NCBI GenBank assembly: GCA_020697715.1
Contig: JAEHCO010000001.1
Span: 2,222 to 66,221, forward strand
Origin: Methanobacteriota archaeon
GTDB lineage: Archaea > Thermoplasmatota > Thermoplasmata > SG8-5 > JAGLSY01
Length of the DNA stretch: 64,000 bases
Direction: 5' to 3'
Numbering within the stretch: position 1 is the first letter of the stretch; each line of letters begins with the position of its first letter. Shown one piece after another: positions 32,360 to 63,953 of the stretch. The translations under genes were made by a program, and so were the position numbers. A model generated the notes under the pieces. It was given only the letters and a program-made list of their open reading frames with translations, was not told where the DNA came from and did not search any database.

Positions 32360-32415
32360 CCGGCTTCCTCTGAATGGGAATCGGGTGGCAAGATAATAAC
32401 ATTTCCGTAATATTG

Positions 32416-35400
32416 TTAAGAAATGTCTGGCTCCCCTTGCCCTTCAGCCTCAACCTCAATTTCAGCATCTGGCTCTGGAGATCCTTCCACACCCTCCGGC
32501 TTTCCACCACTTCCACCTCTGGTGAATCCAATAACAGCCAGCACACCCATAACGACAGCCGCGATGACCGCGCCCCAGGCCCATGCCGGGGTCTCGATGA
32601 CCGTGTCCTGTGTGGATGGATCGGCGGTGCCATTATTCCAAACAGTTGTATTATGATATTCTGGAATTGTGTTATTGGCCCATTCGGTCGTGTTGTGGTA
32701 TTCTGGAATTGTCTCATTGTTCCATATTGTTTGATTGTGATACTCTGGAACTGTCTCATTGTTCCAGATGGTCTGATTGTTGTACTCTGGAACTGTCTCA
32801 TTGTTCCAGATGGTCTGATTGTTGTACTCTGTGACAATGAGGAAATCAGAATCCATGAAATCCGCTATGCCGTCATTGTCATCGTCTGGTGGAAGATCAG
32901 TGTCATCCAATGGGTCAAATCCACCTGCAATTTCGACTGCATCGTCCCAGTTATCATTGTCATCATCATCATCCACCGAATCGTCAATTCCATCGCCATC
33001 ATTATCTGATACCATTGTCGGATCAAGTGGGAAGTCATCAGAGGTATCTGGAGTGCCGTCATTGTCATCGTCCAGGTCTGTGGTGTCCGGTTGACCGTCA
33101 TTGTCTGTATCCAGATCCACAGTAAGGGTGAATATCCGGGTGTCATTGGCACCGTTCCCATCATCAACTGTGACCTCGACATTGTAGATACCTGCCTGCG
33201 CATTGTTGGGTGTTCCGGACAATATTCCGTCATTGTCTATTGAAAGCCAGCCTGTGACATTACCGGACAGGTTCCAGGTCGTGGATGGGTCATCTGTGGA
33301 ATCATAATCGACCGAGTACAATGCTCCAGTGTTGGTGCTCGGAACATCTGGGGTTGTTATACTGGGGCCCATGTTCTCCACATCGAAGGTGTAATTATAG
33401 AAGCCTTGGTGGCCCACAGGATCCGTGGCCGTGATATTTGCATAGTATGTGCCTACATCCACGTTCAAAGGAGTTCCAGATATTACTCCAAATGAGGATA
33501 TGGACAGCCAGCCTGTGGCATCGGTTTCCAAGCCCCATTGCATCATGCCAGATCCAGGAAGAGGTTGAAGGGCTGAATCAAAAACGATCATGTAATTTGA
33601 ATCTTCAATAGCCGTGTCCATCATGGTCACTTGCCCTGTCGAGATAATTGTGGAGAACGGAGTCAGGTATGGGTATGAAGTGGTCTCCATAATGCCCCAG
33701 ACATTTGTGAAGTTCCATGGCGGGTTGAATGTCGCTTGCTGCTTCATCTCAGCAGTGGTCTTACCAGTTGCACCAGTAAGTCCGCCAGCGCCGATTCCTA
33801 TTCCTGTTACAGAAGTGTCGGTATCCCAAAAACAATCTATGATAGCGCCAGAATTGTTATATCCGGCAAAGCCACCCGAATTGAGATTACCGATTGCCCT
33901 ACCTGTGCTGTAACAATTCTTTATCGTGCCAATGCCCCATACATATCCTGTGAATCCACCAACCCGGTCATTACCAATAGCATTTCCCATGCTGTAGCAG
34001 TTCGCGATGATACCGTGGTTCTGTCCTGAAAAACCACCAACATATTCAATTGTTCCAATAGAGCTCCCAGTACTGTAGCAGGCAGTGATCGATCCAACTT
34101 CATTGATACCCACAAAACCACCAACATAACTATCTGTTCCAGTTGCACCCCCTGTGCTGTAGCTTGCCGTTATCGGTCCTTCGTTCCATCCTACAAAACC
34201 ACCAATATACATATGTCCACTGGCACTACCTGTGCTGTAGCAATTTGTGATCGTGCCGACATTGGTCATAAACCCCGCGAAGCCCCCAACATAATCAAAA
34301 ATTCCTGTGGCACTGCCAGTGCTGTAGCAATTTGTGACCTGGCTATTATCAATATATCCAACGAAACCACCAACATACATATCTCCATTTACAATACCGG
34401 TGCTGTATGAGTTTATGATCGTGCCGCCAATATTAAATCCAACGAAGCCGCCGACATAATGATCGATCGATGTGGCATCTCCTGTGCTGTAGCAGTTAGA
34501 GGCGGTATTGCCATTAAGACCGATGAAGCCGCCGACATTGTTAGCACCGCTGGCATCTCCTGTGCTGTAGCAGTTAGAGACGGGATTGCCATTAAGACCG
34601 ATGAAGCCACCGACATGATCATCACCACTGGCATTGCCAGTACTGTAGCAGTTAGAGACGAGATTGTTATTAAGACCGATGAAGCCACCATAATAATCTC
34701 CCGATGCAAAAGAGATGGCATTGCCGGTGCTGTAGCAGTTTGTTATAGTGCCACTGTTACTTCCTGTGAATCCTCCTGCATAATCATCGACCCCATTGGC
34801 ATCTCCCGTACTATAGCAATTTATTATGTCTGCCTGATTTTGGCCTACAAAGCCTCCTGTATACTCAACTGCGGTTGACGTGCCAGTACTGTAGCAATTG
34901 GAGATATTACCTACAAAATTAAGTCCTACAAATCCACCAGCGGTCCATGAGATACCATTTACAGAACTGGTACTGTAGCAGTAAGTGATAGTGCCACCAT
35001 TATTTGTTCCAACAAGCCCGCCAACATCAAAGATTCCAGTTACGTATCCTGTGCTGTAACAGTCAGTGATCGTGCCCATATTTCTTGCAACCAAGCCTCC
35101 AACAGTATCTTGGCCATCTATATCTGAATTGTTCAGGCCAATGCCAGTTAAGCTGGCTGTTTCGCTGATAATGCCAAAGAGGCCAACTTGATCTGTGGTG
35201 GAACGGTTTATTATCAAATTAATTATTTCAAAGCCCTGGCCATCCAGAGAGCCATTGAACTTCGATGTGGTATTACCAATTGGTGTAAACCCTGCGCCAG
35301 AATCCCAGATATTGGTAATTGTGGCATCGATATCATTGCCCAATACGTAACTTGCATTCATGTCCAAGCGTATGTAATACAAATCAAGAACATCCTCCAC

Positions 35401-35610
35401 AATGTAAGGGTTGCCAATACTACCATCTCCACCACCGAAAGCTCCTCCGGCAAGTGGGACAGGGCCGGGAACAATTTCCTCACCCTCTACATTCGCGGTC
35501 ATATCCAGCATCACAAAAAGTGAGCTGAGAACTAGCATAGAACTGATAATTAATGTGGCTGTTTTCTTCATGATATCATTTCCCCTATCAATGTGAGGGA
35601 AATGCACCAT
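32416..35610 (-). CDS. Giant surface protein, paralog of 28649-32359 (GLUG repeats, Ig-like, TSP3-like repeats, sequon stalk, TM anchor)
   Basis: 1064 aa; same architecture and near-identical C-terminal module; downstream flank ATAATAACATTTCCGTAATATTGTTAAG duplicated after both paralogs. Confidence 0.75.
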   Translation of the reverse strand: MVHFPHIDRGNDIMKKTATLIISSMLVLSSLFVMLDMTANVEGEEIVPGPVPLAGGAFGGGDGSIGNPYIVEDVLDLYYIRLDMNASYVLGNDIDATITNIWDSGAGFTPIGNTTSKFNGSLDGQGFEIINLIINRSTTDQVGLFGIISETASLTGIGLNNSDIDGQDTVGGLVARNMGTITDCYSTGYVTGIFDVGGLVGTNNGGTITYCYSTSSVNGISWTAGGFVGLNFVGNISNCYSTGTSTAVEYTGGFVGQNQADIINCYSTGDANGVDDYAGGFTGSNSGTITNCYSTGNAISFASGDYYGGFIGLNNNLVSNCYSTGNASGDDHVGGFIGLNGNPVSNCYSTGDASGANNVGGFIGLNGNTASNCYSTGDATSIDHYVGGFVGFNIGGTIINSYSTGIVNGDMYVGGFVGYIDNSQVTNCYSTGSATGIFDYVGGFAGFMTNVGTITNCYSTGSASGHMYIGGFVGWNEGPITASYSTGGATGTDSYVGGFVGINEVGSITACYSTGSSIGTIEYVGGFSGQNHGIIANCYSMGNAIGNDRVGGFTGYVWGIGTIKNCYSTGRAIGNLNSGGFAGYNNSGAIIDCFWDTDTSVTGIGIGAGGLTGATGKTTAEMKQQATFNPPWNFTNVWGIMETTSYPYLTPFSTIISTGQVTMMDTAIEDSNYMIVFDSALQPLPGSGMMQWGLETDATGWLSISSFGVISGTPLNVDVGTYYANITATDPVGHQGFYNYTFDVENMGPSITTPDVPSTNTGALYSVDYDSTDDPSTTWNLSGNVTGWLSIDNDGILSGTPNNAQAGIYNVEVTVDDGNGANDTRIFTLTVDLDTDNDGQPDTTDLDDDNDGTPDTSDDFPLDPTMVSDNDGDGIDDSVDDDDDNDNWDDAVEIAGGFDPLDDTDLPPDDDNDGIADFMDSDFLIVTEYNNQTIWNNETVPEYNNQTIWNNETVPEYHNQTIWNNETIPEYHNTTEWANNTIPEYHNTTVWNNGTADPSTQDTVIETPAWAWGAVIAAVVMGVLAVIGFTRGGSGGKPEGVEGSPEPDAEIEVEAEGQGEPDIS
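32657..32840 (-). repeat. In-frame 42-bp tandem repeat (about 4.4 copies, two identical) encoding 14-aa double-sequon units (PEYHNQTIWNNETV)
   Basis: Units start at 32657, 32699, 32741, 32783, 32825; 32741-32782 is identical to 32783-32824. Confidence 0.8.
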
Positions 35611-44915: not shown

Positions 44916-46472
44916 ATGGCTGAGACACTCACCATACTGAAAGGCGTCAGTATAAATGATGACGGCCAGGTATCCATGGATCTCAGAGAATGGAGCATTG
45001 AGGATATCGTATCCACCATGAGCAAGGTGTTCGATTCGCTGATCGCGGTCTCCGCTATCACCAAAGGTGATGAAAAGGCCTACCTGGAAGCGGATGATTC
45101 CGTAATGAGGATAAAAAATCAATTCAAGTCCCAATTTGTCTCACTTGGCATAGAGAAGCATATCCTGAAGGGAGGTTTGAGATCCCATCTGGACGTGGGA
45201 ATTGAAGGAGCGGATAAGGTATTGGGGGGAGGGATCCCCAAAGGCAATACCATATTATTGCTCGGACCACCTGGAAGTGAGAAATACTTATTCGCATACC
45301 AATATATAATCCAGGGACTGAGGGATGGAAGTGCATGTCTTATCAGCACATCGGTCACTGACCATAAAGGAATGAAGAACAATCTTTCAAAGTTGAAGAT
45401 CAAGCCATCCACATTCGAGGGCCAGGGATTATTGAAGACCATCGACTGGTATTCTTATAAGAAAGAAAATCTGGTGGGTGTGGAGGATGATGGAAATGTT
45501 TTCAGAGCGTCCAAGGACATAACCAATCTTGATATCGCGATAGGATCGGCTGTCAACAAGCTCTCCTTTGCCCCGACAAAAAGAGCGATGCTGGATATAA
45601 TATCACCAGCACTCAATATCTATGATCATTCCATGGTCATAGAGTTCGTTCAAAAGGAGAAGAACCTATTGAAGACTAAGGGCTTCACGACACTTCTGGT
45701 GGTTGAGAGCGGAGCTCATGATGAAAGAACATTGTCCACTCTTAAACATCTTTCAGACGGTGTGTTGATTATCGAGAAAGGCAGCAAAGGCCAGCTTACA
45801 TTCAAAGTAGAAGCTTTATCTGGCATGAAGTTCGACCAGAAGGCCCATCGCATCAAGGTGACCAAGAAAGGTCTGGAGATCATTTCCAATGTGAAGGATG
45901 AAAGCTCCATATTACAGGATCTGCAAGAAATACCAGCGATTGACAAAATAACAGCAGAAAAACTTATCGAGGCTGGCTTCACCAGCATGGAAAAATTGGA
46001 AAAGGCGAAGAAGTCGGAACTGGAAAGTGTTACAGGCATTGATGCGAATGTGTCCAATAAGATCTACGAATACATACATTCTGTAGAATATTCAAAGAAG
46101 ATAATAGAGAGAAAGAGCCAGAACTGGGTAAGGAAAGGATTGCAATTCATTGGTAAAAAAGAGATAGACAAGGGAATGCAAAGTTTCCAGAGGGCGATAG
46201 AGATCCACCCCAAGAACTCAAGTGCGTGGCTGGAGATGGCCAGGCTTCTTTACAATGAAGGTAGCAAAGATGATTCCAGAAAATGCTTTGACAAAGCTTT
46301 GGAGATCGATCCCACATTGGCAAAAGAATGGTTCGATAAGACCGAGGTACAGGAAGCTGGATGGGGCTGTCCCGTATGTGGGTTCTACATAAAGGAAGAA
46401 AATATCGAATGCCCTGAATGTGGTGTCATATTCAGTGTTGAAGAAAGAGAGAGCCAGAGGGATCAAATATGA
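44916..46472 (+). CDS. KaiC/RecA-like domain protein fused to helix-hairpin-helix, TPR and C-terminal zinc ribbon
   Basis: 518 aa; KaiC-like core (GIEGADKVLGGGIPKGNTILLLGPPGSEKY) with atypical P-loop lacking GK[ST]; HhH (IPAIDKITAEKLIEAGF…VTGIDANVSNKI); TPR-like pair; CPVCG…CPECG; start uncertain. Confidence 0.65.
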   Translation: MAETLTILKGVSINDDGQVSMDLREWSIEDIVSTMSKVFDSLIAVSAITKGDEKAYLEADDSVMRIKNQFKSQFVSLGIEKHILKGGLRSHLDVGIEGADKVLGGGIPKGNTILLLGPPGSEKYLFAYQYIIQGLRDGSACLISTSVTDHKGMKNNLSKLKIKPSTFEGQGLLKTIDWYSYKKENLVGVEDDGNVFRASKDITNLDIAIGSAVNKLSFAPTKRAMLDIISPALNIYDHSMVIEFVQKEKNLLKTKGFTTLLVVESGAHDERTLSTLKHLSDGVLIIEKGSKGQLTFKVEALSGMKFDQKAHRIKVTKKGLEIISNVKDESSILQDLQEIPAIDKITAEKLIEAGFTSMEKLEKAKKSELESVTGIDANVSNKIYEYIHSVEYSKKIIERKSQNWVRKGLQFIGKKEIDKGMQSFQRAIEIHPKNSSAWLEMARLLYNEGSKDDSRKCFDKALEIDPTLAKEWFDKTEVQEAGWGCPVCGFYIKEENIECPECGVIFSVEERESQRDQI

Positions 46473-47413
46473 GCTTGGGCAAGAAGGCCTTCGCCTCGGC
46501 TCCCTGTAGCTTGACATTATTGGGATATGACCTACACGATCATATTGGAACCTCTGTGGGGATCGCACTGGATAAGCGAATAAAATGTGAGACCATGATA
46601 TCGGAAAGCTTCATGGTCAATAACGATGTCTATGATGGGAACAAATATCCTTATGTTAGGGCGGCTCTGCTTCATGGATGGAGCGATATTGACACCCCTG
46701 TCTCATTCGAGATAGATGATATTACGATCCCAGATAATGTCAGTGGCTATGGACCTGGACATATCGCCTCCACCCTGGGTTCCCTGTCAATGATGAACGA
46801 CAATCTGATGTTCGAGGATATCTTATTGAAAGGCCATGAGATATTGAAGGAGAATGATAGCAAGATGGGGGTATTGGGACTATCCACCGCTATCAATGGA
46901 TATGGCACTGTATTATCCAATGAGATCGGCAAAGGCCACTTATGGAGTGTGGGAAAGGGGAAGAAAGCGAGGCACATCCATCATCTCGACATGCCGGATA
47001 TGACATTCGTTCTCGCATTTCAGAAGGGTGGATCTGGGAAAGAGGATTTCTCTGGAAAGTTCAATAATTTCGCCAGGCGTCAGAGTGGCTTCTTCAAAGA
47101 CATGCTGAAGGATTCGGCAAAGCTGGCTAAAAAAGGTCTTCAGGCTTTGGAGCGTGGGGATATGGAAGGGCTTGGCCAGGCCATGAACGAGACCGACAAG
47201 TTGACGAAGACGATGGGCATGTACACGCCAGAACTGAAAGTCGTGGCCGACCTGTGCAGGAGCCAGGCATTTGGAGCGAGGCTTTGCATATCGGAGAAAC
47301 ATGCGTATGTGGTGACTTTGACCAATGAGCCGGAAGAATTGGCCAGCAATATCCGGGAAAAGGGACATATCGCGATGGTCGCTGGCATATCCCGCGATGG
47401 ATTGCAGATATAA
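46469..47413 (+). CDS. GHMP-kinase-like protein (divergent; function unassigned)
   Basis: 314 aa; weak GHMP-type motifs (APCSLTLLGYDLHDH…, Gly/Ser-rich loop PGHIASTLGS, C-terminal GARLCISEKHAYVVTL); 4-nt overlap with upstream gene. Confidence 0.4.
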   Translation: MSLGKKAFASAPCSLTLLGYDLHDHIGTSVGIALDKRIKCETMISESFMVNNDVYDGNKYPYVRAALLHGWSDIDTPVSFEIDDITIPDNVSGYGPGHIASTLGSLSMMNDNLMFEDILLKGHEILKENDSKMGVLGLSTAINGYGTVLSNEIGKGHLWSVGKGKKARHIHHLDMPDMTFVLAFQKGGSGKEDFSGKFNNFARRQSGFFKDMLKDSAKLAKKGLQALERGDMEGLGQAMNETDKLTKTMGMYTPELKVVADLCRSQAFGARLCISEKHAYVVTLTNEPEELASNIREKGHIAMVAGISRDGLQI

Positions 47414-52724: not shown

Positions 52725-53231
52725 TTACATATTCAGTAAGCTGCCGCCGCTCATCTGGATCTCTTGTCCGTCTAGGTCGACTATTGTAATTTCGTATTCA
52801 CCAGCCTGTGCGTTTGCCCAGGTCAATGTTACGTAGTCTCCACTGTTTATAAGAGAGTTGGCTCCGATATCAGTTGCTACTGCAGTGATATCCTGTCCAG
52901 CGCCAGATTTTGCAACAGAAATTGCTGTTGGCGGATTGGCATCAAACGATAATACATAACTAGTGGAATTAACACCAGCTATTGTTATTGTTATGTCTGT
53001 CCATTCGATATCTGTGCTGAACGATCCGAACTTCATTGTTGCGGTTGTTGAAGAGTCCTTATCGAGCTCTGACCAGTTTCCTGTTGCAGCTACACTGCCT
53101 CCACCGCCAAAGTCCATGACCATGACGTAAAGCACAGCAGCCAAAACCACGGTGATAGCGACCATCAAAATGGTAGCAATAACCGGAGACACTGCGTCGT
53201 CCTTCTTTCTTATATTCCATGTGTTTTTCAT
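52725..53231 (-). CDS. Archaeal type IV pilin-like protein (class III signal peptide)
   Basis: 168 aa; N-terminus MKNTWNIRKKDDAVSPVIATILMVAITVVLAAVLYV matches the prepilin-peptidase-processed motif; beta-rich Thr/Ser-rich C-terminal domain. Confidence 0.65.
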   Translation of the reverse strand: MKNTWNIRKKDDAVSPVIATILMVAITVVLAAVLYVMVMDFGGGGSVAATGNWSELDKDSSTTATMKFGSFSTDIEWTDITITIAGVNSTSYVLSFDANPPTAISVAKSGAGQDITAVATDIGANSLINSGDYVTLTWANAQAGEYEITIVDLDGQEIQMSGGSLLNM

Positions 53232-53367
53232 ATATTTTGTCCTCCTGTAGACTATAAGCCTACGTAATTATAGATTACAAGGACAATATATTTATAGTTT
53301 TCTCAAAATAATACGGCAATCAACGTATATACATACGGCAAATACCGATGCATTGTGCCTCAAAGGA

Positions 53368-54120
53368 TCATATGTTCTTTGCGGATATACCCTTATCATC
53401 TATGTTGCATGATAAGATCTTAGTTTTCTCTGGGTGATTCCTCACCTTCCTTATCAGCAGATTCCTTGTGAAAGTGGAGCCCTCTCTGAGCCTCTCCAGT
53501 TCTATTGTGATATCCACTATATCCTGGACACCACTTTCCACGCGATTGTCAAAAACCCCTTTCAGCATCGTGACGAGGGCTATGCCATTATTTAGTTGAG
53601 TATGAGCCTTGATGGTCCTTATGGCGGAAAGCACATCAGCCTCATCATAATACTCTAGGAAGAAATCCAGAGAATCCAATACGATCCTAAATGGTGGTTT
53701 GAGCTTCGATATACCATATGTGAGCGTGGTCAGGAAATTGACATCCATGCTTTGTTCAGCCTGGGCGGCATTGAATTGCTTGATATCTCGCATTTTCAAT
53801 CCTTCCTGGCGATACTTGCTAACTTCCAGGTTCTTGGCCAGAACCTTCTCATAATACATCTTGCCGATATTCACGACCCTGATATCCTGCTTCCACCCGA
53901 ATTCACCCATGGCGGTCTTAACAGCCTCATCACTTTCAGTGGTGGAGAAATAGGTAACGTTCTCATTTCCTATTCCAGCTGCTGCAAACTGCTTGGCAAA
54001 TAGCTCGACACCGGTTCCGGGTATACCGGTGATCAATATCGTACATCCTTTCGGAACACCATCCATCAGGGATTTATCCAGCTCCTTCACACCTATGCTG
54101 GTAGTTTCGATCAAACTCAT
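53368..54120 (-). CDS. KaiC/RecA-like ATPase domain protein (third of triad)
   Basis: 250 aa; P-loop-like GIPGTGVELF (non-canonical) and KaiC-type fold; 4-nt overlap with upstream gene. Confidence 0.7.
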   Translation of the reverse strand: MSLIETTSIGVKELDKSLMDGVPKGCTILITGIPGTGVELFAKQFAAAGIGNENVTYFSTTESDEAVKTAMGEFGWKQDIRVVNIGKMYYEKVLAKNLEVSKYRQEGLKMRDIKQFNAAQAEQSMDVNFLTTLTYGISKLKPPFRIVLDSLDFFLEYYDEADVLSAIRTIKAHTQLNNGIALVTMLKGVFDNRVESGVQDIVDITIELERLREGSTFTRNLLIRKVRNHPEKTKILSCNIDDKGISAKNI

Positions 54121-54689
54121 TCACCCCCTATGGTTATCGTGGTATCACATACCAACTTCATCATATTGGATATCTCTTCAGTGCTGAACTCTTCCATTGT
54201 GAAGACCATGGAATAGGCATCCTTGGCTCTCAGATTGTTTATGAATATATGCAAGAATTCGGACAGGATCTTCATATTATTGTGAATACCCAGGGCATTT
54301 ATGGCATCTAAAACAATGACATTGTTCTTGCCATCTGATTTCCTTATGAGGTATTCCACCTTCAGCATGATGTTCTCCAGCATGGTGGGGCTTTCCACAT
54401 AGAGCACGTTCTTGTATTTCTTGGCCCCTCCGACCATGATATGGGAAACACAGTCCACGAAGTAAATATTGGTAAGATCGATCTCCAGGATCTTCAAGAC
54501 ATCGATTATTGAATGTGATGGAATAGCCACCGTGATGTAGATGACATTCAAATTCTTCTTATTGGCGAAGATATCCACTATTCCCCTTATGGCATCGAAA
54601 TAACTATCACTGACTATCTTCAGGTTTATAGCGGATGAAGGTGGGAGCTCATGAAGCTCATCTGCCAGATCGCCAGGTGATTTGATCAT
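54117..54689 (-). CDS. KaiC/RecA-like fold protein lacking recognisable Walker A (second of triad)
   Basis: 190 aa; matches C-terminal part of KaiC-like fold (NVIVLDAINALG) without P-loop; 4-nt overlaps on both sides. Confidence 0.5.
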   Translation of the reverse strand: MIKSPGDLADELHELPPSSAINLKIVSDSYFDAIRGIVDIFANKKNLNVIYITVAIPSHSIIDVLKILEIDLTNIYFVDCVSHIMVGGAKKYKNVLYVESPTMLENIMLKVEYLIRKSDGKNNVIVLDAINALGIHNNMKILSEFLHIFINNLRAKDAYSMVFTMEEFSTEEISNMMKLVCDTTITIGGE

Positions 54690-55438
54690 AGACCACCACC
54701 GCCCTTGAGCAATGGAACAAGTAATACGCCCGCGGGTGTCAGATCCAGAACATATTTCGCTCTGGAATGTACTGTTCCTCTCATTTTCACCACTTGCAAT
54801 GTCCTCAGAAGGTCTCCCCTCCGCTCATAATTCCCCATAAGGACGATACCATCCGCGATGGCTTCCTCCACCCCGTAGAGCGAGTACCTGTCGGCAGATG
54901 GTGATATTTCGGATATCAGAAGACTGGTGCAACCCCTGGTAGAAAGAGCTTTTCCTATCTTCAATATGAATTCCCTTATCTTCTCCTCTGTTTTCAATCT
55001 GTAGCAAACGGAGGTTATGGAATCTATGACCAATCTTTTGACAGAAAGCTCATCCACGAGGTTACCCAGTGCACGAACCAGAGTGTCGACATCCTCCAGA
55101 CTGAACTCCACATTTGTCAAACCCAATCTCTCATAGATGACTGGCATATCGACGAATGCCAGTTTTCCTGTTTTTATCAGGGATTCCTCAAAGAAATCAT
55201 ATGGGATGACATTCGTGGTAAGTTTCTCAGATGATTCTGTAACTGAAACAAAAAGTGAATTCTCATCGGCCAGAGCCCCATGCACTAAAAATTCAAGGGA
55301 CAGTGTGGTCTTTCCAGTACCGCAACTGCCTGTGAACAAAATGGTATTTCCTCTGGGTATTCCTCCATTTAGAATATTATCCAAACCATCTATTCCTGTA
55401 ACGCAACGTTCTCTCTCAATGATATTTTCTGAGGCCAT
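54686..55438 (-). CDS. KaiC/RecA-like ATPase (first of triad; canonical Walker A)
   Basis: 250 aa; GIDGLDNILNGGIPRGNTILFTGSCGTGKTTL Walker A, Walker B (RLVIDSI), KaiC-type C-terminus. Confidence 0.75.
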   Translation of the reverse strand: MASENIIERERCVTGIDGLDNILNGGIPRGNTILFTGSCGTGKTTLSLEFLVHGALADENSLFVSVTESSEKLTTNVIPYDFFEESLIKTGKLAFVDMPVIYERLGLTNVEFSLEDVDTLVRALGNLVDELSVKRLVIDSITSVCYRLKTEEKIREFILKIGKALSTRGCTSLLISEISPSADRYSLYGVEEAIADGIVLMGNYERRGDLLRTLQVVKMRGTVHSRAKYVLDLTPAGVLLVPLLKGGGGL

Positions 55439-55591
55439 GATTTCCGTTCTCCAATATAGCTAACCATATTTTAATCATTTGCATAAGGATGGATTAATTT
55501 GTAATTACCTGCAAATCTATTTATAAGTCTTAACAGATATATAAAAAACTGTCCATAACATCAAGCAGACATCAAGTAGGAGACTGGCACT

Positions 55592-58500
55592 TTGAGCGAT
55601 TCCACACTTTACCTATGCCCATTTTGTGGCGCCTTCATAAACGAGGAGGCCGAGGTTTGTCCCAATTGCAGCAAACCATTGGAAGAGGAGGTGGAAGGTG
55701 GATTCGAGAAAGAGCTGGATGATCTTATAGATGAAGATCTCAATGCCATGTCAGGAAGTGAATCCTGTCCCAGATGTGGAAAGCAGCTGGAAGAAGGATC
55801 ATTAGAATGCCTGGATTGCAATATGAAGATCGAGGATGGACTGGAACCCGCATCTGAAGGAGAAGAGGAAGGAGTGGCTCTATTCCTTTGTTCAGGATGT
55901 GGGGCTTTTATCAATTCGAATTCCAATGAATGCCCCAAATGTGGTATTTCACTTGATGATGAGGCTGAAGAAGAACATGATTTTGTAGAATATGATAATG
56001 AATTGCTGGATCTCCTTGTTGAGAATGAGCCAGATGAAGAAGATGAGCTTATCCTGGAGTTGGATAGCATAGATGATCCAGAAGATCTGATATCGGTCAT
56101 TGACAAGATGCCGGATATTGAAGATGAAGAGCTATTCGATGATGAACCAGATATCGTACTTGATCTTGATCTGGCAGATGACGATCCGGAAGGCGATCTT
56201 CTTCACATGAACATTGATGATGAAATAGAGAAGACCAGGATAGTGGAATCCATTAGCGAAAGGGTAGCCGGAGAAGTGGCTATCGAAAGTGATAGTGGAG
56301 ATGAGATCATGCTCTGTGGAGAGTGTGGAGCATTTGTCTCCCAATCTTCAAAGGAATGTAATGTTTGTGGAAATGACATAAGACCTGGCAGCCATCTGGC
56401 TATTGAAAAAGATGAGATCCCCTCAGAGAATGATGGCGAAAATACAGAGACCGCCCTGAGGTCCATACTTGGGATATTGGATGATGTCATACTTGATCCG
56501 GATCCAATGGCAGATCATGAGGATGATATTGGCATATGCCAGAAATGTGGAGCTTTCATACCTCATGGCGAGAGTGCGTGTCCCGTATGTCATGCGGACA
56601 AAAAGAGTCTTCCAGATATCATATACACGGAACTGCCTATAGATGATCATGATTCTATGTCCATTTGCGGGGATTGTGGAGCTTTTGTCAAATCCGATTC
56701 AGATACATGTAATGTTTGTGGAGCCAAGGTCGATGCCGATATGCTAAGATCCATAGAGCCAGATGATGTCTTGGAGATGGGGATGGATGCGGATGACCCA
56801 ATGGATATTCTGAAAAAAGCACTGGGTGTGCTGGAATTACGAGATACGACACCAGAGGAAAGGATCGGTGGAGAACTGGATCTATGTCCGGATTGTGGTG
56901 CTTTCGTCTCAGCTAATGCCAAATCATGCTCCATTTGTGGCAGCGATCTGATCCAGGGCACGGATATAAGCCTGGATGATGGCATAGTCATGGATCTGGA
57001 TGATGGATCGGTCATTCTTTCAGACAGTGTTTGTCCCAATTGTGGCTCCAAGTTCGGGGTCGGGGCAGGAGATTGTGAGGTTTGTGGCTTCACATTCCTC
57101 GGTGATGAAAGTGATCATGACGAGAAGGAAATGTCCTATGAAGACAGGGTGGACATATCGGATATCATAGAATTCGAGGTTCCAGAATTGACAAAGGAAA
57201 GCGCTATCGATCACCTCAATGAAATGGAAGATGATATGGATGATCTAATTCTGGATGAAGTAAAGCCTGAATCATCTGCCGAGGTTAAGAGTGGGGAACT
57301 ATCCAATGAAGAAAAGCTGGCCAGGATAGAAAAGGCCTATGAAGAAGGGCAACTTAGCAAGGCCAATTACATAATCAACAAGGCCAAGTTCTACGGACTT
57401 GTTCAGGAAATGAATGAGATAGAAGATGACCTGGATGAGCTTTTGATAGATATTGATGAGACGATGGCCGAGACCGTGGAAGTGCCGACCGAAGAGGATG
57501 AAATAGAAAGTCTGGAGCTTGGAGATCTTCATCTGAATATCGATCCAGATGCTCAGGACGACGAGGATACCCAGCCAGATGTGGAAATGGAATATGATGA
57601 TCTGTCCCTTTCAGAAGATGACATCAAAGAAGGCATCCATGACGGAAAATATGATGATATCATCGAATTCGATGATCAGGATCTGGATCTAACCCAGGAT
57701 GATACTTATCAGGAAGATCTGGATGAGCATATTGAAACTTATGAGGAAGAGGATGAGACCTCGAAAGAGGATGAAACCTCGGATGAGGATGTCATATACG
57801 AAGAGGTCGAGGTCTATGTGGACGAAGATGGCCAGGAAATAGAATATGAAGAGGTCGAGGTAAATGAGGATGACATCGAAGAGTATGAGGAGGATGTCGA
57901 TGATCCTGAAGGAACCGATTTAGATGATCATGACCCCGAGGAAACATATTTCGAAGAGGAAGACGAGATCCATGTACCCTTCAGATCACATGCCATGGCG
58001 GAGACCACTGGAGGACCGCAATATCTCAATCATTCCGGATGGGAATATGGTGTCATCGCATCACTTCTTACATCCCTCTTCTATGTCGCGCTTTCCTCAT
58101 ACATACCCATCAATCCCATATCATTGGCCATAATATTTGGCGTGATACTTATCTTCGCCTTCATAATGATGGTCACATCAAGATCCATATTCATGAAAGG
58201 CGATCTGTACCGTGGTTCCGTGTTCATGATAGGCGGAGTGATAATTTCTTTCATCCTGCTCCATTGGTTCGCGGATATCATGATCGATGATCCGATGGTG
58301 GACAAAATGCTACTGTCGATAGGAATAATGATGATCGGTATAGGAATAATCTGGATAAGGGGCAAGATCCGATATATCCATCTCTGGTTATCCGGCACCA
58401 TATTCCTATTTCTGTTCTCCATAGGAGAGCTTTATTATTTCGAGCAATGGGCCTATTCCCCCATCCAGCCACCAGGAGCGATAGTGGCTGGGATCGGGAT

Positions 58501-59152
58501 ATCTCTGATCGTGGCCAGTTCCATACTGCTGGCCTATGAGAGAAGTCTACACACTTCGATAGAGACGGAGATCGTTCGAGGAGATATGGACTATCTCAAT
58601 AAGAATTACAAGAAGGCATTGCATTCCTATGATAGGGCGCTTGAGAAAAGCACCCTGAAGACCGAATCCGCATTGAAGGCAGATGATACCAGGGAATACG
58701 ATGTCCCATGGTACAGTAAAGGTGCGACCCTGATATTGATGGGTAATTTGAAAGAAGGAATTGAATGTCTGGATATGGCTCTATCCATAAATCCCAATAA
58801 CGAGGTCGCATGGGTGAGCAAGGGAAATGCCTATTCAAAGCTCGGGGACATGAGCAGTGCTTTGGAATCATATAACAATGCATTGATCGCGAACCCCAGA
58901 TACATAATAGCCTGGAACAATAGAGGTAATGCATTTGCCAGGAAGGAGAATTATATCGAAGCCCTGAAGAACTATAACAGGGCGATCAAGCTGGATCCAG
59001 ATTATAAGGACGCGTGGATCAATAAGGGCTATGTCCTGATGAAGATGGGAAAGCAGGATGAGGCGCTCAAATGTGTGTCGATGATAGGGGAGAAAAAGAT
59101 GGGACAGCATGGAGCAGCCAGTACCAATGGCAGTACTAAGGCCTCTGCCTGA
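55592..59152 (+). CDS. Giant membrane protein: eight N-terminal CxxC-N(9-11)-CxxC zinc ribbons, acidic linker, about six TM helices, C-terminal TPR repeats
   Basis: 1186 aa, TTG start; ribbons such as CPFCGAFINEEAEVCPNCSKP, CSGCGAFINSNSNECPKCGIS, CGDCGAFVKSDSDTCNVCGAK; hydrophobic block (…VIASLLTSLFYVALSSY…); four or more 34-aa TPR units. Confidence 0.7.
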   Translation: MSDSTLYLCPFCGAFINEEAEVCPNCSKPLEEEVEGGFEKELDDLIDEDLNAMSGSESCPRCGKQLEEGSLECLDCNMKIEDGLEPASEGEEEGVALFLCSGCGAFINSNSNECPKCGISLDDEAEEEHDFVEYDNELLDLLVENEPDEEDELILELDSIDDPEDLISVIDKMPDIEDEELFDDEPDIVLDLDLADDDPEGDLLHMNIDDEIEKTRIVESISERVAGEVAIESDSGDEIMLCGECGAFVSQSSKECNVCGNDIRPGSHLAIEKDEIPSENDGENTETALRSILGILDDVILDPDPMADHEDDIGICQKCGAFIPHGESACPVCHADKKSLPDIIYTELPIDDHDSMSICGDCGAFVKSDSDTCNVCGAKVDADMLRSIEPDDVLEMGMDADDPMDILKKALGVLELRDTTPEERIGGELDLCPDCGAFVSANAKSCSICGSDLIQGTDISLDDGIVMDLDDGSVILSDSVCPNCGSKFGVGAGDCEVCGFTFLGDESDHDEKEMSYEDRVDISDIIEFEVPELTKESAIDHLNEMEDDMDDLILDEVKPESSAEVKSGELSNEEKLARIEKAYEEGQLSKANYIINKAKFYGLVQEMNEIEDDLDELLIDIDETMAETVEVPTEEDEIESLELGDLHLNIDPDAQDDEDTQPDVEMEYDDLSLSEDDIKEGIHDGKYDDIIEFDDQDLDLTQDDTYQEDLDEHIETYEEEDETSKEDETSDEDVIYEEVEVYVDEDGQEIEYEEVEVNEDDIEEYEEDVDDPEGTDLDDHDPEETYFEEEDEIHVPFRSHAMAETTGGPQYLNHSGWEYGVIASLLTSLFYVALSSYIPINPISLAIIFGVILIFAFIMMVTSRSIFMKGDLYRGSVFMIGGVIISFILLHWFADIMIDDPMVDKMLLSIGIMMIGIGIIWIRGKIRYIHLWLSGTIFLFLFSIGELYYFEQWAYSPIQPPGAIVAGIGISLIVASSILLAYERSLHTSIETEIVRGDMDYLNKNYKKALHSYDRALEKSTLKTESALKADDTREYDVPWYSKGATLILMGNLKEGIECLDMALSINPNNEVAWVSKGNAYSKLGDMSSALESYNNALIANPRYIIAWNNRGNAFARKENYIEALKNYNRAIKLDPDYKDAWINKGYVLMKMGKQDEALKCVSMIGEKKMGQHGAASTNGSTKASA

Positions 59153-62100
59153 CCTGCATGATGCATATTCCGATCATGGTTGCCAGGATCAATGAGAAGA
59201 TATTACTGAACTCGTCAATAATGATTATATCGACCGATGCCACATCACTATCCGGCAGAAGCATGTAGCCACTGGAAGTAGTGTAATTCAATAGTGCCCA
59301 ATTATCAACAGGGCCAGCAAGTGGCGTCGCATTGACTGTCACATTGATGAATATCGCGTATGAGCCGGGCGCGATATTTGTGAAGTACCAGCTAATATCC
59401 TGACCCAGTATTGTCGAAGGAGCTGGAACCGCGCTGTCGAAGATAATTCCAGAGGGTAATGTGTCATTTATCCAGACATTGCCCGCATTGGTCGAGCCAG
59501 TATTATTGTAGAAGATGGTGTACATGATGGTGTCATTGGCATAGGCGGTTGTGACATTGGCGGTCTTCTGGATATCTATAACAGGCCGCTGGCAGGTGAC
59601 ATTGGCCCATGAGGTCTCGGTTCCCAGAGAGTATGTCAAAGTGGCGGAATTGGATAATAATTCCAGATCGGTCGCATTGGCATTCACCTGCACCTCGATG
59701 GTTATGAGATTCGTACTCTGTCTGGGAATCTGGGTGAAGGTCCAGCCAAGATCCTGGCCAACTATCGTCACGGGCAATGGATTGGCGACCACATAATCGA
59801 CATTCGCTGGAAGTACATCATCTATCTGAACATTCCAGGCCTTTCCCAAACCTGTATTATTGTACCATATCTCGTAGGTTATCAGATCGCCTGGTTGGGC
59901 AGTGGTCACATTGGCTGTTTTGGATATGGACATATTGGGGAGTTTAGGTGCCAGTGGATCAATGGGGTCAGAAAGCTCTATTTCTTCTAGCCCAGTCGAT
60001 CGGGATGACCTTGCGGCCTCGGCATTGTGCCTGATACTATTGGTCTCATCCTCCATACCCAGCCAGTCTGACATTTCGATGGCGATGGAGATATCAGATT
60101 GCCTGGATATTCCAAGAAGTCCAAGGGGCACGCCTACCTCAATCCGGGATAGATCATTGGCCCCGGATGCTTTGCCGAGATATGTCCATGGAGTGCTCGC
60201 GGACATCTCCTCATATGAGTATATCTCGCTGGATAGTATCTTATTGTATTTGCCAGTTATAAGGATTAAATGGTCAGCTCCAAGCTGACCATTTAAATAA
60301 TGGCCTGTTTCGATATCATCATCCGCGTCTATGTATATCAACAGATGATCCATACCTTTTCTCTCAATGTGCCTCACAGGGCCGATATAACGGCTTATGA
60401 ACCTGCCAGAATAATTCGCATCATAGCTCTGGGGGATGGTGGTATTGAGCCAATTGTCAACACCTCCAGCATCGTGATCCACTACACCGTCGCCATCACG
60501 ATCCCCATTAGAATTCGCATCATCGACACCGTCATTATTAAAATCATGAGCATATGAGCCATCAGGGCCATCCAGCACATCCGGGACACCATCATTGTCC
60601 GAGTCCAAATTAGGAGAAGTCTGAGTGACATTTTGAGCCGATGGTGTTGATCTGATCCTCAGCACTGGTATTGCGGATCCTCCCATGGCCACCCCACCCA
60701 CGGATGTGTAGATGTTCAGCTCATCATCCATATTCATGCGGTAATCCCTGATATCCACATTCCTGTTCAGGAACTTCAGCTTTGCAGGATCCTTTCCTGG
60801 AACTACCTGATCATTGGCCGCATCGATATTTGGAGGTGTCGATTGCCAGTCTCCAAATGCTCCATCTATCGTCGTACCAGATGGTTGGCCATAGTGTTTG
60901 AGAGATGGTGCACTTACTATCATGTCCAAGTTGACGGTGTCGATCATGCCCACATTCAAAGGCATGAGGCCGATGGTCTGGCCATTCTCTGTCCCGGTCA
61001 ATGTGGATGAAAGAATAAGTTGAGTGATTTCAGACGGCGATAGTGGCATGGGGTCGAATAATTCCAAATGAAGGACCTGGCCGTCCACCTGCATCGAGGA
61101 TAGGCCAACCACCTCGTCAATGACAGGTTCTATCAGGCCATTATCATTCATATCCTTGTATAATGTGAATTGTGAAAGAATATCCGGACTGGATGTTCCC
61201 AATATACGGAAGTCGAGTGAGTCGATCTCCACCTCATCCTCATAGCATACGAGTTCGAAGGAGCAAGAGAGAACATCATCTCTTGCCAGTATATCATTCG
61301 AAGGGTCAGTGATCGACCTTATAGACAGGGATGCGGTATTGGGGATCATTATGCCATCGGAAGTGTCTGTATTTCCTTCGGAATCACTTGTCATGACAAG
61401 GACTGATGGTGACTGGTCTGCCAGATCGCTCATGGCCGTTCTCAGTTCGATCTTATCTCCACTCACCTTACTGGATACCGAGGATATATACATGAACCCA
61501 CTCCAGTCATCAGGATCATGATCATTATCGAATCTCAATAGTTCAGATGCTTCCACATGATTATCATAACCATGAACATCTATCAGGACATCGGCGCCCA
61601 GATTGTCGATGGAATAGCCAGTGCGATTATTCCCATCTGCATCTAGGAAGATATAGATGGAATCCACACCACTGCCATTCGCACTACCACCTTCCATCAT
61701 GGTCCCGTCAACTTGTAGGAAAATGTCAAGATATGGATGATCCAATGAAAATCTAGTATCTACCAGATCTATATCAGGGTTTATGACATCCGATACTTCA
61801 TCGGCATAGGATGTGAACTTATTCCAGTCACTGAAAGCTCCGTCTATCGAGATATCTCGTGTGTCACCATTATTCATATTCTCGGTGAATATCGGCACAT
61901 AGAGTATCAAAGATATCACAATGACAATGGATAAAAAGCCGATCTTCCACCTACGTGCTTTTTGACGATTCCTTCTCAATATAGCCATATCCTGCTTTCT
62001 CTCAACCAAGGAATCACCATTTATGAAACCATCGCCATTAACTATGCCAGAGCCGTTGACCAGGCCATTCGTTAACCCATTGGTCAAGCCATTGGTACGA

Positions 62101-63953
62101 CCTTGACCATTTGTGATTCCATTCGTCCTACCCTGCCCATTCGTTAACCCATTGGTACGGCCTTGACCATTGGTGAGACCGTTCGTTCTTCCCATACCAT
62201 TTGTAAGGCCGTTCGTCCTACCCTGGCCATTAGTTAATCCATGGGCACCACCTTGACCATTGGTCAAACCATTTGTCCTACCTTGACCATTGGTAAAGCC
62301 TTGAGCATGACCGAATTTCCTTCTCATCTTTTCAGAAAGTTCAAGATCATTGGAATGGGATATCTTCTCGGCATCCACATCGTATACCAGAGAATCCAAT
62401 ATGGACTCCAATTCTTCTTCCGTATAGTCCTCTTCTTGATCGTCCACACACTCATCCTGATCGATGACCTCGAATGACTGGTCATCATCATCGTCCTCAT
62501 CATCTAAATCAAATTCAAGGGAATCAAGAAGATCCTGCATCTCTTCATCTGACTCGACCTCATCCATATCCGTATAGCCCAATTCCAATGGATCTTCAAT
62601 TATCTCTCCATCTAAACCGAAAATAATGGGAGTTGGAGCAGTATCCGGCTCATCAGTCTCATCAAGATCAAGAACAAGAGATTCGAGAAGATCGTCCATG
62701 TCTTCATCTGGCTCATCTTCAAGGATTAGCTCGGGTTCATGTTCAATATCATCTTCAAACTCTTCACCCTCAAGATCCAGACCCAATTCTGCCAGGTCGT
62801 CCAATCCATCCAATTCCAATAAGAGCCAGTCCTCTTTGAATGCCTCATCAGAGCCCTGGTCAAGATCAGATATATCGTCATCATCGTGCTCGACCACCTC
62901 GATCCTTTCCAGCTCTTCATCCTTCAATTCCAATAATTCCAGGGAGAACATCTCGTCCTCCAATTCAGCCATTTCAGATCTGAGGATATCGTCCTTCATC
63001 ATGCCCTTCTCTTCGATCTCCATCTGCTTACAGTTCGGGCATGAACTGGAATCTCCCATAACGAAGGTGCCGCAGGACTCGCAGACCGTGAACCCTATGG
63101 TTGGAACTGTCTCGAGAAGGTCTATTTCCTCTTCAGGGTCCTCATCCGGTTCATCCAGCTCCCTGGATAATACCTCATTCACTTCCTTGGACAGGACATT
63201 CACATCTCCGATCTCATCCTCCAGATCACCCAGGGAATTGATGATGGCCTCATCCAGCTTGAATTCCTTCATGTCTATGACATCGTCACAGTTCGGACAG
63301 CTTTCTGCCCCACTGCCCAGGAATGCTCCACAGGATCCGCATATACCAATATCTAGATCCGGGGCGGTCTCAAGCCTATCCACCTCTGGTTCATCCACCA
63401 GGTCCATTTCCAATATCTCATCGATCTCGGAAGATAGCATCTCGCCACATTTGGGACACGTGTCCACATCCCCCTCCACAAATGTCCCGCAGGAACTGCA
63501 CATTTGGAAATCGATCTCCGGTATCGTCTCAAGGAGATCGTCATGCTCATCTGCCAGTTCATTGCCCAATGCTTCTGCGGTGATATCTTGACTGAATATC
63601 TCACCACAGACCCCGCAATCCTCGGATATGGAGCTGATCAATGCACCACAACTCGAGCATCTGGATAATATCTCATCAGTTACATCATCCTCATCTTCCT
63701 CCACCGTGGTGTAACATATTGGACAGACCGCACTGTGCTCGTTCAGAAATGCTCCGCAGTTCCCACATAGGTAAAATTTGATATCAGCAGCATCTTCGCC
63801 AACTGAAAGCCCCAGGAAATTGATTATGTTCTCGATCGCGCCTTTCTCATCCAAGATAAGATCCGAGGTCGAAATACGAGTGCCAGTAATGGAGCCGACA
63901 TCGACTGGCTGACCCAATTGAACATGCATCCGATTCACAATATCATGGTTCAC
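59136..63953 (-). CDS. Giant membrane/surface protein: five or more N-terminal zinc ribbons, acidic region, GxTNG decapeptide repeats, TM, about 1000-aa extracellular region with DUF11-like repeat domains, C-terminal TM
   Basis: 1605 aa from GTG start; reading frame stays open upstream to the window end, so the N-terminus may be truncated; ribbons CGNCGAFLNEHSAVCPICYT etc.; repeats GLTNGQGRTN about nine times; domains TANVTTAQPGDLITYEIWYNNTG and TANVTTAYANDTIMYTIFYNNTG. Confidence 0.7.
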   Translation of the reverse strand: MNHDIVNRMHVQLGQPVDVGSITGTRISTSDLILDEKGAIENIINFLGLSVGEDAADIKFYLCGNCGAFLNEHSAVCPICYTTVEEDEDDVTDEILSRCSSCGALISSISEDCGVCGEIFSQDITAEALGNELADEHDDLLETIPEIDFQMCSSCGTFVEGDVDTCPKCGEMLSSEIDEILEMDLVDEPEVDRLETAPDLDIGICGSCGAFLGSGAESCPNCDDVIDMKEFKLDEAIINSLGDLEDEIGDVNVLSKEVNEVLSRELDEPDEDPEEEIDLLETVPTIGFTVCESCGTFVMGDSSSCPNCKQMEIEEKGMMKDDILRSEMAELEDEMFSLELLELKDEELERIEVVEHDDDDISDLDQGSDEAFKEDWLLLELDGLDDLAELGLDLEGEEFEDDIEHEPELILEDEPDEDMDDLLESLVLDLDETDEPDTAPTPIIFGLDGEIIEDPLELGYTDMDEVESDEEMQDLLDSLEFDLDDEDDDDDQSFEVIDQDECVDDQEEDYTEEELESILDSLVYDVDAEKISHSNDLELSEKMRRKFGHAQGFTNGQGRTNGLTNGQGGAHGLTNGQGRTNGLTNGMGRTNGLTNGQGRTNGLTNGQGRTNGITNGQGRTNGLTNGLTNGLVNGSGIVNGDGFINGDSLVERKQDMAILRRNRQKARRWKIGFLSIVIVISLILYVPIFTENMNNGDTRDISIDGAFSDWNKFTSYADEVSDVINPDIDLVDTRFSLDHPYLDIFLQVDGTMMEGGSANGSGVDSIYIFLDADGNNRTGYSIDNLGADVLIDVHGYDNHVEASELLRFDNDHDPDDWSGFMYISSVSSKVSGDKIELRTAMSDLADQSPSVLVMTSDSEGNTDTSDGIMIPNTASLSIRSITDPSNDILARDDVLSCSFELVCYEDEVEIDSLDFRILGTSSPDILSQFTLYKDMNDNGLIEPVIDEVVGLSSMQVDGQVLHLELFDPMPLSPSEITQLILSSTLTGTENGQTIGLMPLNVGMIDTVNLDMIVSAPSLKHYGQPSGTTIDGAFGDWQSTPPNIDAANDQVVPGKDPAKLKFLNRNVDIRDYRMNMDDELNIYTSVGGVAMGGSAIPVLRIRSTPSAQNVTQTSPNLDSDNDGVPDVLDGPDGSYAHDFNNDGVDDANSNGDRDGDGVVDHDAGGVDNWLNTTIPQSYDANYSGRFISRYIGPVRHIERKGMDHLLIYIDADDDIETGHYLNGQLGADHLILITGKYNKILSSEIYSYEEMSASTPWTYLGKASGANDLSRIEVGVPLGLLGISRQSDISIAIEMSDWLGMEDETNSIRHNAEAARSSRSTGLEEIELSDPIDPLAPKLPNMSISKTANVTTAQPGDLITYEIWYNNTGLGKAWNVQIDDVLPANVDYVVANPLPVTIVGQDLGWTFTQIPRQSTNLITIEVQVNANATDLELLSNSATLTYSLGTETSWANVTCQRPVIDIQKTANVTTAYANDTIMYTIFYNNTGSTNAGNVWINDTLPSGIIFDSAVPAPSTILGQDISWYFTNIAPGSYAIFINVTVNATPLAGPVDNWALLNYTTSSGYMLLPDSDVASVDIIIIDEFSNIFSLILATMIGICIMQVRQRP
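62020..62310 (-). repeat. In-frame 30-bp tandem repeat (about 9 copies) encoding GLTNGQGRTN decapeptides
   Basis: Recurrent CCATTGGT…CCTTGACC units on plus strand at 30-bp period inside the giant gene. Confidence 0.6.

Follow-up and report, generated by a model that had tools for sequence, protein, structure and literature searches.

The open reading frame (ORF) at positions 55592..59152 (+) of a 64,000-nucleotide stretch of DNA from a Thermoplasmata archaeon (contig JAEHCO010000001.1, positions 2,222 to 66,221 of the forward strand; hereafter the window) encodes a protein of 1186 aa with eight tandem zinc ribbons, an acidic linker, six transmembrane (TM) helices and C-terminal tetratricopeptide repeats (TPR). 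The gene is real, conserved and uncharacterised, and its host group is uncultured Thermoplasmata archaea. Its product belongs to a lineage-restricted uncharacterised family, in which known interaction domains are combined with a novel membrane block. Tentatively, we read the protein as a membrane-anchored multivalent tether or scaffold that may follow the same logic as the haloarchaeal protein CdpC. The features of the gene are listed below; the confidence values (pLDDT) are those of an AlphaFold2 model of the full-length protein, built on 43 homologues.

55520..55548, forward strand: AT-rich TATA-like elements (TTTATAAG, ATATATAAAAAA) within the 153 nt that separate the divergent genes, a candidate archaeal promoter read from sequence only
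55578..55582, forward strand: AGGAG Shine-Dalgarno-like element, 9 nt 5' of the TTG; CAGGAGAC is kept in the orthologue at locus L001
55592..59152, forward strand: whole ORF, 1186 aa, TTG start and TAA stop; identical to database protein P0001
55616..55669, forward strand: zinc ribbon 1 (aa 9-26, CPFCGAFINEEAEVCPNC), beta hairpin, pLDDT ~87, at least 90% conserved in the family
55766..55819, forward strand: zinc ribbon 2 (aa 59-76), subclade-specific, pLDDT ~78
55889..55942, forward strand: zinc ribbon 3 (aa 100-117), pLDDT ~82
56315..56368, forward strand: zinc ribbon 4 (aa 242-259), pLDDT ~82
56447..56479, forward strand: h-x-x-h-[LF]-G-h helical motif (ETALRSILGIL) upstream of ribbon 5, low-confidence helix 285-292
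56537..56590, forward strand: zinc ribbon 5 (aa 316-333), C-x2-C-G-A-F and second CxxC invariant in the family
56666..56719, forward strand: zinc ribbon 6 (aa 359-376), from Cys pattern and AlphaFold2
56801..56833, forward strand: second copy of the helical motif, as h-x-x-h-L-G-h (MDILKKALGVL), upstream of ribbon 7
56885..56938, forward strand: zinc ribbon 7 (aa 432-449), four Cys invariant, best stretch for Pfam DZR/Zn_Ribbon_1
57032..57085, forward strand: zinc ribbon 8 (aa 481-498), pLDDT ~72
57086..58036, forward strand: acidic, mostly disordered linker (aa 499-815), pLDDT <50 except aa 572-625
57152-57190, forward strand: conserved post-ribbon motif DISDIIEFEVPEL inside the linker
57305-57466, forward strand: confident helical segment aa 572-625, pLDDT 82-86
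57788-57895, forward strand: [IV]EYEEVE[VY] repeats in the membrane-proximal linker, closest subclade
58040..58546, forward strand: six-helix TM block (aa 817-985), predicted N-in/C-in, without known family
58598..59146, forward strand: predicted cytoplasmic TPR domain of 4-5 repeats and a capping helix (aa 1003-1185), from Pfam, AlphaFold2 and Foldseek

Domain architecture of the 1186-aa protein

The eight units share the pattern CxxC-N10-CxxC and begin at aa 9, 59, 100, 242, 316, 359, 432 and 481. An earlier note on this DNA, made from the sequence alone, had counted eight such units with spacers of 9-11 residues; the count holds, but the spacer comprises exactly 10 residues in all eight. 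Nearly all Cys of the protein (32 of 34) lie inside these units, six of which read CxxCGAF[IV]. When the residues were shuffled 20000 times, a mean of 0.0005 and a maximum of 1 unit was obtained, compared to the eight observed. In a Pfam scan the region matched DZR (2.7e-22, 79.1 bits, threshold 27.3) as well as Zn_Ribbon_1 (1.3e-12, 47.5 bits, threshold 25). Whether the Cys pairs would model as zinc ribbons had been left as a check by the earlier note: in the AlphaFold2 model all eight form short beta hairpins at the knuckles (pLDDT 72-88), separated by spacers below 50. The model thus indicates that the eight units are independently folding Cys4 zinc ribbons of the ordinary structural DZR/zinc-ribbon type.

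The consensus pooled from 300 ribbon units of the family is h-x-[LI]-C-P-x-C-G-A-F-V-S-x-D-A-x-x-C-P-x-C-G-x-x-h. Besides the Cys, positions G5 (94%), A6 (70%), F7 (74%) and the hydrophobic flanks are conserved, which indicates that the ribbon is a folded unit with a conserved surface; no conserved basic residue is found in this consensus. With the Pfam families DZR, Zn_Ribbon_1 and Zn_ribbon_3 (PF12773, PF13240, PF13248) the units have in common the C-x2-C-G-...-C-x2-C-G signature and the beta-hairpin fold. In contrast to these families, which describe a fold and not a function, eight units are spread here over 500 aa with acidic disordered spacers, some of them accompanied by an h-x-x-h-L-G-h helix. 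Fingers of the RanBP2-type/NZF group, e.g. the eight tandem fingers of Nup358, show the arrangement C-x2-C-x10-C-x2-C and occur as arrays in a disordered region. The Cys spacing is therefore identical to that of the RanBP2 type (PF00641), but the W and N defining the latter are missing from the 300-unit consensus, and Pfam zf-RanBP gave no match at E<=1. Convergence within the zinc-ribbon fold probably accounts for the likeness.

The ribbons are carried by an exceptionally charged arm: aa 1-815 contain 260 D/E and 41 K/R, resulting in a net charge of -219. Strongly acidic segments between the ribbons, as described previously, were indeed found (10-24 D/E vs 1-5 K/R per 50 aa), and in the linker (aa 499-815) D/E make up about 40%. 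The housekeeping and cytoplasmic proteins of the window have an isoelectric point (pI) of 5-6.5 and about 15% D/E, so the acidity is not proteome-wide but specific to the 1186-aa protein. Certain ribbons of the arm are preceded, at a distance of 10-30 residues, by the helical motif h-x-x-h-[LF]-G-h. The family contains 59 copies of it, compared to 11.4 in shuffled sequences, distributed over 38 of 43 members.

After the last ribbon a motif D-I-x-D-F/I-x-E-x-E/x-L follows in the subclades examined. Two imperfect DNA tandem repeats (57747-57791 and 57800-57873, periods 18 and 24) are located in the linker, and the stretch 57747..57873 (+) encodes units of the type EEDETS and EEVEV. The orthologue P0002 has three copies of IEYEEVE vs two YEEVEV in the window protein; the linker thus seems to grow by repeat expansion. 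A SHOCT domain (PF09851), suggested by eye at aa 572-601, was rejected, the Pfam model being unmatched; at a cut-off of E<=10, aa 557-630 matched no Pfam family but, by chance, a Topo-V HhH model.

The six-TM block proposed earlier was confirmed, since hydropathy and AlphaFold2 give the same six helices (aa 817-837, 842-862, 871-894, 901-921, 924-954 and 961-985+). Their pLDDT is near 90 in the full-length model, and the block modelled alone yields a six-helix bundle as well (pLDDT 88, predicted template modelling score 0.84). The block matches no Pfam family and no NCBIfam family above cut-off. No fold relative was recognised, and PDB sequences gave only a match of 17 bits to Insig-2, a representative of the INSIG-like six-TM proteins. 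Among 90 aligned TM blocks, W932 and G935 are the only nearly invariant residues. An intramembrane catalytic His-Glu pair was considered and rejected (H891 is kept in 54/90 and E946 in 22/90), and as judged from the alignment there is no conserved catalytic centre in the block.

Residues K and R cluster in the loops TM2-TM3 (RSIFMKGDLYRG) and TM4-TM5 (RGKIRY), the remaining loops being acidic or neutral. By the positive-inside rule both termini are therefore predicted to be cytoplasmic, so that the ribbon arm and the TPR would share the cytoplasmic face of the membrane. As the loops predicted to lie outside comprise at most ~17 aa, there is no outside domain. Two P-[VL]-H-E motifs mark the predicted outer ends of TM3 and TM5 in the ribbon-less relatives P0079, P0083, P0087, P0096 and P0101; in the window protein they are degraded to LLHW and SIGE. 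The presence of two such motifs in distant members hints at an internal two-helix duplication.

The C-terminal TPR tail, also predicted by the earlier note, was recovered by Pfam (TPR_1 1.5e-33, 113.6 bits, threshold 27.8). In the AlphaFold2 model 4-5 repeats are seen, with helix pairs at 1006-1151 and a capping helix (pLDDT 93-98). TM6 is prolonged as one helix (961-1002) and is thereby rigidly joined to the TPR. Foldseek matched the domain to a consensus TPR, the OGT TPR and MamA (E 1e-8 to 4e-10), and it is the most conserved region of the family. The TPR of OGT possesses an Asn ladder. In our protein, too, consecutive repeats have Asn at TPR positions 6 and 9, but this Asn also belongs to the general TPR consensus and therefore identifies no ligand. 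Unlike OGT and MamA, the locus has no glycosyltransferase or magnetosome context.

A comparable set of modules is known from E. coli. LapB (YciM) is anchored in the inner membrane, exposes cytoplasmic TPRs and a rubredoxin-like Cys4 zinc site, and serves as adaptor or scaffold. Its anchor is one N-terminal TM helix, to which nine TPRs and, at the C-terminus, a single zinc site are added. The likeness lies in the membrane anchor, the cytoplasmic TPRs and the Cys4 zinc site, but the architecture differs, and the NCBIfam LapB model did not match the 1186-aa protein at E<=0.01.

A TTG start that is wrong, so that the N-terminal array is not translated, had been named earlier as a point that might overturn the whole architecture. 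Such an annotation artefact could draw on the non-ATG start and on the next in-frame candidate starts further on, GTG 55691 and ATG 55748. However, an in-frame TAG five codons 5' of the TTG makes a longer N-terminus impossible, AGGAG precedes the TTG, and the later starts would cost ribbon 1 alone, which is itself conserved over the 43 proteins. The orthologue with 73% identity shows the identical TTG and the identical GGAG context; in farther homologues an ATG is located 8-12 residues ahead of the first Cys. In comparison to the 73% orthologue, the ratio of non-synonymous to synonymous substitution rates (dN/dS) is 0.15 for the whole ORF and 0.16, 0.23, 0.07 and 0.08 for ribbon region, linker, TM block and TPR, respectively. 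Start context, conservation of ribbon 1 and these ratios indicate that the entire ORF is translated and under constraint, and the artefact is effectively refuted.

Family members and their distribution

By homology search, at least 43 proteins built on the same plan were found in the database, namely P0001 (100% identity to the 1186-aa product, encoded on a 956-kb NCBI contig) and 42 others. Where they are named at all, they are annotated as 'tetratricopeptide repeat protein [Thermoplasmata archaeon]'. The shared plan consists of 4-9 CxxC-N10-CxxC ribbons, an acid-rich linker, a homologous TM block and C-terminal TPRs, with the exception of P0035, which shows 15 matches to the Cys pattern with irregular spacers. 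DZR was matched above threshold by all 43 members. The number of ribbons is fixed per subclade, i.e. 8 in the closest relatives and 7, 5 or 9 in others. Eight ribbons, which had appeared exceptional at first sight, are thus simply the norm for this subclade.

When one genome of each GTDB species was scanned, about 40 loci were found; the TM+TPR alignment served as query, the alignment of the TM block alone being too divergent. These loci all belong to metagenome-assembled genomes (MAGs) of uncultured archaea labelled Thermoplasmata or Methanomassiliicoccales, apart from a few TPR-only matches to bacterial and Methanothrix-type MAGs. The nearest locus was that of 'Methanobacteriota archaeon SF.bin11'. 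An exhaustive search of 1.84 billion representative sequences with a HMMER profile of the TM block gave only 56 proteins at E<=1e-3. The rarity claimed for this protein therefore applies to its TM block, but not to the whole protein, which is one member of a lineage family of 43 proteins present in about 40 GTDB species. Neither a survey of ESCRT proteins (PMC10936438) nor a review on archaeal dark matter (PMC6393860) describes the family.

In every full-length match to the TM block the TPRs follow directly after it, and several distant members have zero ribbons and longer TPR arrays. Since the TM block is always combined with TPRs and sometimes lacks ribbons, these comparisons suggest that TM+TPR is the core of the family and the ribbon arm a portable accessory. 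A similar arm was found on the giant single-pass proteins P0052 and P0053 as well as on soluble ribbon+TPR and ribbon+HhH (helix-hairpin-helix) proteins. The latter were displayed by a homology search with the ribbon region only, which was swamped by low-complexity matches and missed close relatives. A helix-hairpin-helix domain (HHH_5) is located at the tip of the arm in 16 of the 43 members (best E 6e-14) and was not detected in the 1186-aa protein by the Pfam scan. The role of TM+TPR as the conserved core, the predicted cytoplasmic position of both ends and a neighbouring gene product with the same arm (see below) had been missed by the earlier note.

Precomputed Pfam matches of the relatives include PF28085 and PF27618. 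These families are also found on ribbon-only proteins and are therefore probably of zinc-ribbon type.

A possible membrane scaffold and its alternatives

The interpretation as tether or scaffold is based on four properties: the polytopic anchor, the rigidly joined TPR, the folded ribbons on a disordered arm bearing short motifs, and the reuse of this arm elsewhere. We consider it the best available explanation, at a probability slightly short of even. In such a scaffold the TM bundle would fix the protein in the membrane and may in addition determine its location or act as a sensor at that site. A peptide segment of a partner would be held near the membrane by the TPR groove. The arm would act as a multivalent capture line reaching into the cytoplasm, kept extended and off the membrane by charge repulsion. 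Each ribbon, in some cases together with its upstream h-x-x-h-L-G-h helix, could bind one copy of a cytoplasmic partner, and polymeric or multi-copy partners would thus be gathered at the membrane. Candidates for such a partner are a cytoskeletal polymer, the KaiC-like ATPases or, in relatives with helix-hairpin-helix tips, DNA. The docking platform suggested by the earlier note fits in so far as folded and conserved mini-domains are displayed on a motif-bearing disordered arm, but not as a platform for nucleic acids in the present protein.

The model for this logic is CdpC (HVO_0399) of Haloferax volcanii, the membrane anchor of FtsZ1, in which FtsZ1 is bound by a zinc ribbon on a disordered linker of 243 aa and the membrane by an amphipathic helix that a ribbon stabilises (bioRxiv 10.64898/2026.07.16.738847). 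Distant relatives with multiple zinc ribbons and unknown function occur in all classes of Thermoplasmatota (bioRxiv 10.64898/2026.07.16.738847). Both systems are archaeal, and in both, ribbons and a long disordered linker would join the membrane to a cytoplasmic partner. CdpC possesses neither a TM bundle nor a TPR domain, in contrast to the six-TM anchor, the eight N-terminal C4 ribbons and the C-terminal TPR found here. Compared by published description, the two have no more in common than the disordered linker and the use of ribbons. As the architecture differs and the comparison is one of descriptions, we regard CdpC as a functional analogue; the protein may work like CdpC but is not assigned to its family.

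Several points weigh against the scaffold. The genomic context names no partner, and no neighbouring gene conserved across the whole family was found when the subclades were compared. A plain anchor needs only one helix; the conserved six-helix bundle suggests more than anchoring. CdpC (346 aa, two ribbons) is anchored by an amphipathic helix, has its partner-binding ribbon at the C-terminus and shows the opposite order of parts. Finally, the assignment of the topology relies on the positive-inside rule only.

Of the alternatives, transmembrane signalling carries most weight, being followed by a DNA tether, then by metal handling and, last, by the annotation artefact. Signalling, compatible with the scaffold and overlapping it rather than excluding it, appears unlikely as an explanation of its own. 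The six-helix bundle would sense a cue in the membrane or at its outer face (an ion, a lipid or the state of the membrane), and the change would be relayed via the continuous TM6-TPR helix, upon which TPR and ribbon arm release or recruit effectors. This fits the uninterrupted helix 961-1002 and the fact that TM block and TPR are both the most constrained regions (dN/dS 0.07 and 0.08) and the ancestral core. The outer ends predicted for TM3 and TM5 hold semi-conserved polar residues, H891 (54/90) among them, and two P-x-H-E motifs are present in distant members. The subclade also adjoins KaiC-like ATPases, which have reportedly been proposed by Makarova et al. as archaeal signalling hubs, but this adjacency is seen in five syntenic genomes only. 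Moreover, neither a sensor nor an output domain can be recognised, the loops on the outer side are very short, and the membrane contains no invariant polar residue, W932 and G935 alone being nearly invariant.

A tether between membrane and nucleic acid, in which the arm would dock DNA or RNA at the membrane, e.g. as chromosome or plasmid anchor, is improbable for this protein. It would be in accordance with the HHH_5 domain at the arm tip of 16/43 members and with a KaiC-HhH-TPR-ribbon protein encoded 9 kb upstream; furthermore, zinc ribbons bind nucleic acids in many proteins (PMC3581485). Yet the 1186-aa protein contains no HhH, its ribbon consensus has no conserved basic residue, and an arm with a net charge of -219 and 41 K/R in 815 aa is hostile to a polyanion. 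Nucleic-acid docking, as the earlier note had envisaged it, is thus plausible only for the 16 relatives with HhH. Its other suggestion, chelation or storage of metal, received no specific support and is unlikely. With eight potential Cys4 sites per chain the protein might buffer or store zinc, or oxidation might release zinc and unfold the ribbons; Cys4 zinc sites are known as redox switches from Hsp33 and the anti-sigma factor RsrA. We judge such a role very improbable. The units fit ordinary structural zinc-ribbon profiles and keep both their hydrophobic core and their spacing; there is no likeness to a metallothionein, and the surrounding genes encode neither a metal transporter nor a metal regulator. 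Ribbon-less members retain the TM+TPR core, from which it follows that metal handling is not the core function.

A more far-reaching extension of the scaffold, for which we see little probability at present, would be a new archaeal class of membrane organisers. The protein would be the polytopic, multivalent counterpart of CdpC, its ribbons sitting on FtsZ or other filament subunits or, in the HhH-tipped relatives, on DNA. The TPR would dock a second component of the divisome or of the segregation machinery, and through the arm on the neighbouring giant surface proteins, structures of the cell surface would be linked to that same partner inside the cell. If true, Thermoplasmata would possess a system linking the inside and the outside of the cell that has so far gone unrecognised.

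The recurrence of the ribbon arm on several other membrane and soluble proteins of these organisms suggests a common cytoplasmic partner. Thermoplasmata of this kind are uncultured and their membrane biology is largely unknown; the family adds to them a six-helix membrane domain found nowhere else together with two generic interaction modules. The 1186-aa protein is a concrete candidate for the idea that multi-ribbon proteins of Thermoplasmatota act like CdpC. Should the partner be cytoskeletal or chromosomal, a new membrane organiser would be gained for archaeal cell biology; if not, the protein would be a lineage-specific scaffold of modest general interest.

Neighbouring genes and further features of the window

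The window is archaeal, as seen from an intron-bearing tRNA, topoisomerase VI, eRF1 and archaeal pilins. The gene stands alone, being divergent from a trio of KaiC-like genes and convergent with the gene of a ribbon-bearing surface protein. The following neighbours are of relevance:

44916..46472, forward strand: 518-aa protein with KaiC-like ATPase, helix-hairpin-helix, TPRs and one C-terminal CxxC-N10-CxxC ribbon (Pfam)
46469..47413, forward strand: 314-aa ORF without Pfam match, overlapping the 518-aa gene by 4 nt
52725..55438, reverse strand: three KaiC-like genes (250, 190 and 250 aa) in an operon-like run
59136..63953, reverse strand: convergent neighbour of 1605 aa with five ribbons on an acidic arm, 17-nt 3' overlap

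The convergent 1605-aa protein carries the same kind of arm, with five CxxC-N10-CxxC ribbons, 176 D/E vs 29 K/R in 640 aa, and the h-x-x-h-[LF]-G-h motif. About seven repeats of 10 aa (GRTNGLTNGQ) are encoded by a DNA tandem repeat with period 30 at 62077-62300. One TM helix flanked by RRNRQKARRWK is followed by about 880 aa outside the cell with DUF11/DUF7619 repeats and a C-terminal anchor. The arm lies on the positive side of this helix, which is predicted to be the cytoplasmic one.

The middle gene of the KaiC-like trio (190 aa) is degenerate and shows weak matches to KaiC/DUF7090 only. A gene for an archaeal type IV pilin (Pilin_N) is located just downstream of the trio on the same strand, and the trio and the pilin may form a regulatory set related to pilus or archaellum. 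The placing of the gene between the trio and the surface-protein gene is kept only in the window and in its four nearest genomes (L006-L009), and there the upstream block is syntenic as a whole; the trio is absent beside the 7-, 5- and 9-ribbon clades. A functional link to the KaiC-like ATPases was rejected as unsupported, the adjacency being limited to these five syntenic genomes. The neighbours of the 7-ribbon clade are a gene with metallo-beta-lactamase fold and DUF92, those of the 5-ribbon clade an unknown 256-aa gene, a transglutaminase and a NosD/HTH protein. PADLOC defence models matched neither the protein nor its neighbours, save for a weak generic TPR match (E 1e-4).

About 9 kb upstream, the 518-aa protein uses the same domain vocabulary as the membrane family. 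Its TPR resembles that of the family in a generic manner (21-28% identity). The pair of 518-aa and 314-aa genes is kept in the 73% relative.

Some further genes and elements of the window deserve mention. A tRNA of 112 nt at 7258..7369 (+) was detected by Rfam (49 bits) and missed by ARAGORN; it is probably an intron-containing archaeal tRNA. Two adjacent giants of 1236 and 1064 aa (28649..35610, reverse strand) contain many GLUG motifs and He_PIG Ig-like domains; with a pI of about 4 and 1.4-1.6% K/R, they are probably secreted surface proteins. Next to them, a WD40/beta-propeller and Ig protein is encoded at 26090..28591. At 15744..18047 (-) an ABC-transporter permease (BPD_transp_1) is fused to an N-terminal region of about 500 aa with PQQ/beta-propeller-like repeats, an unusual architecture for a permease of the Opp/Dpp type.

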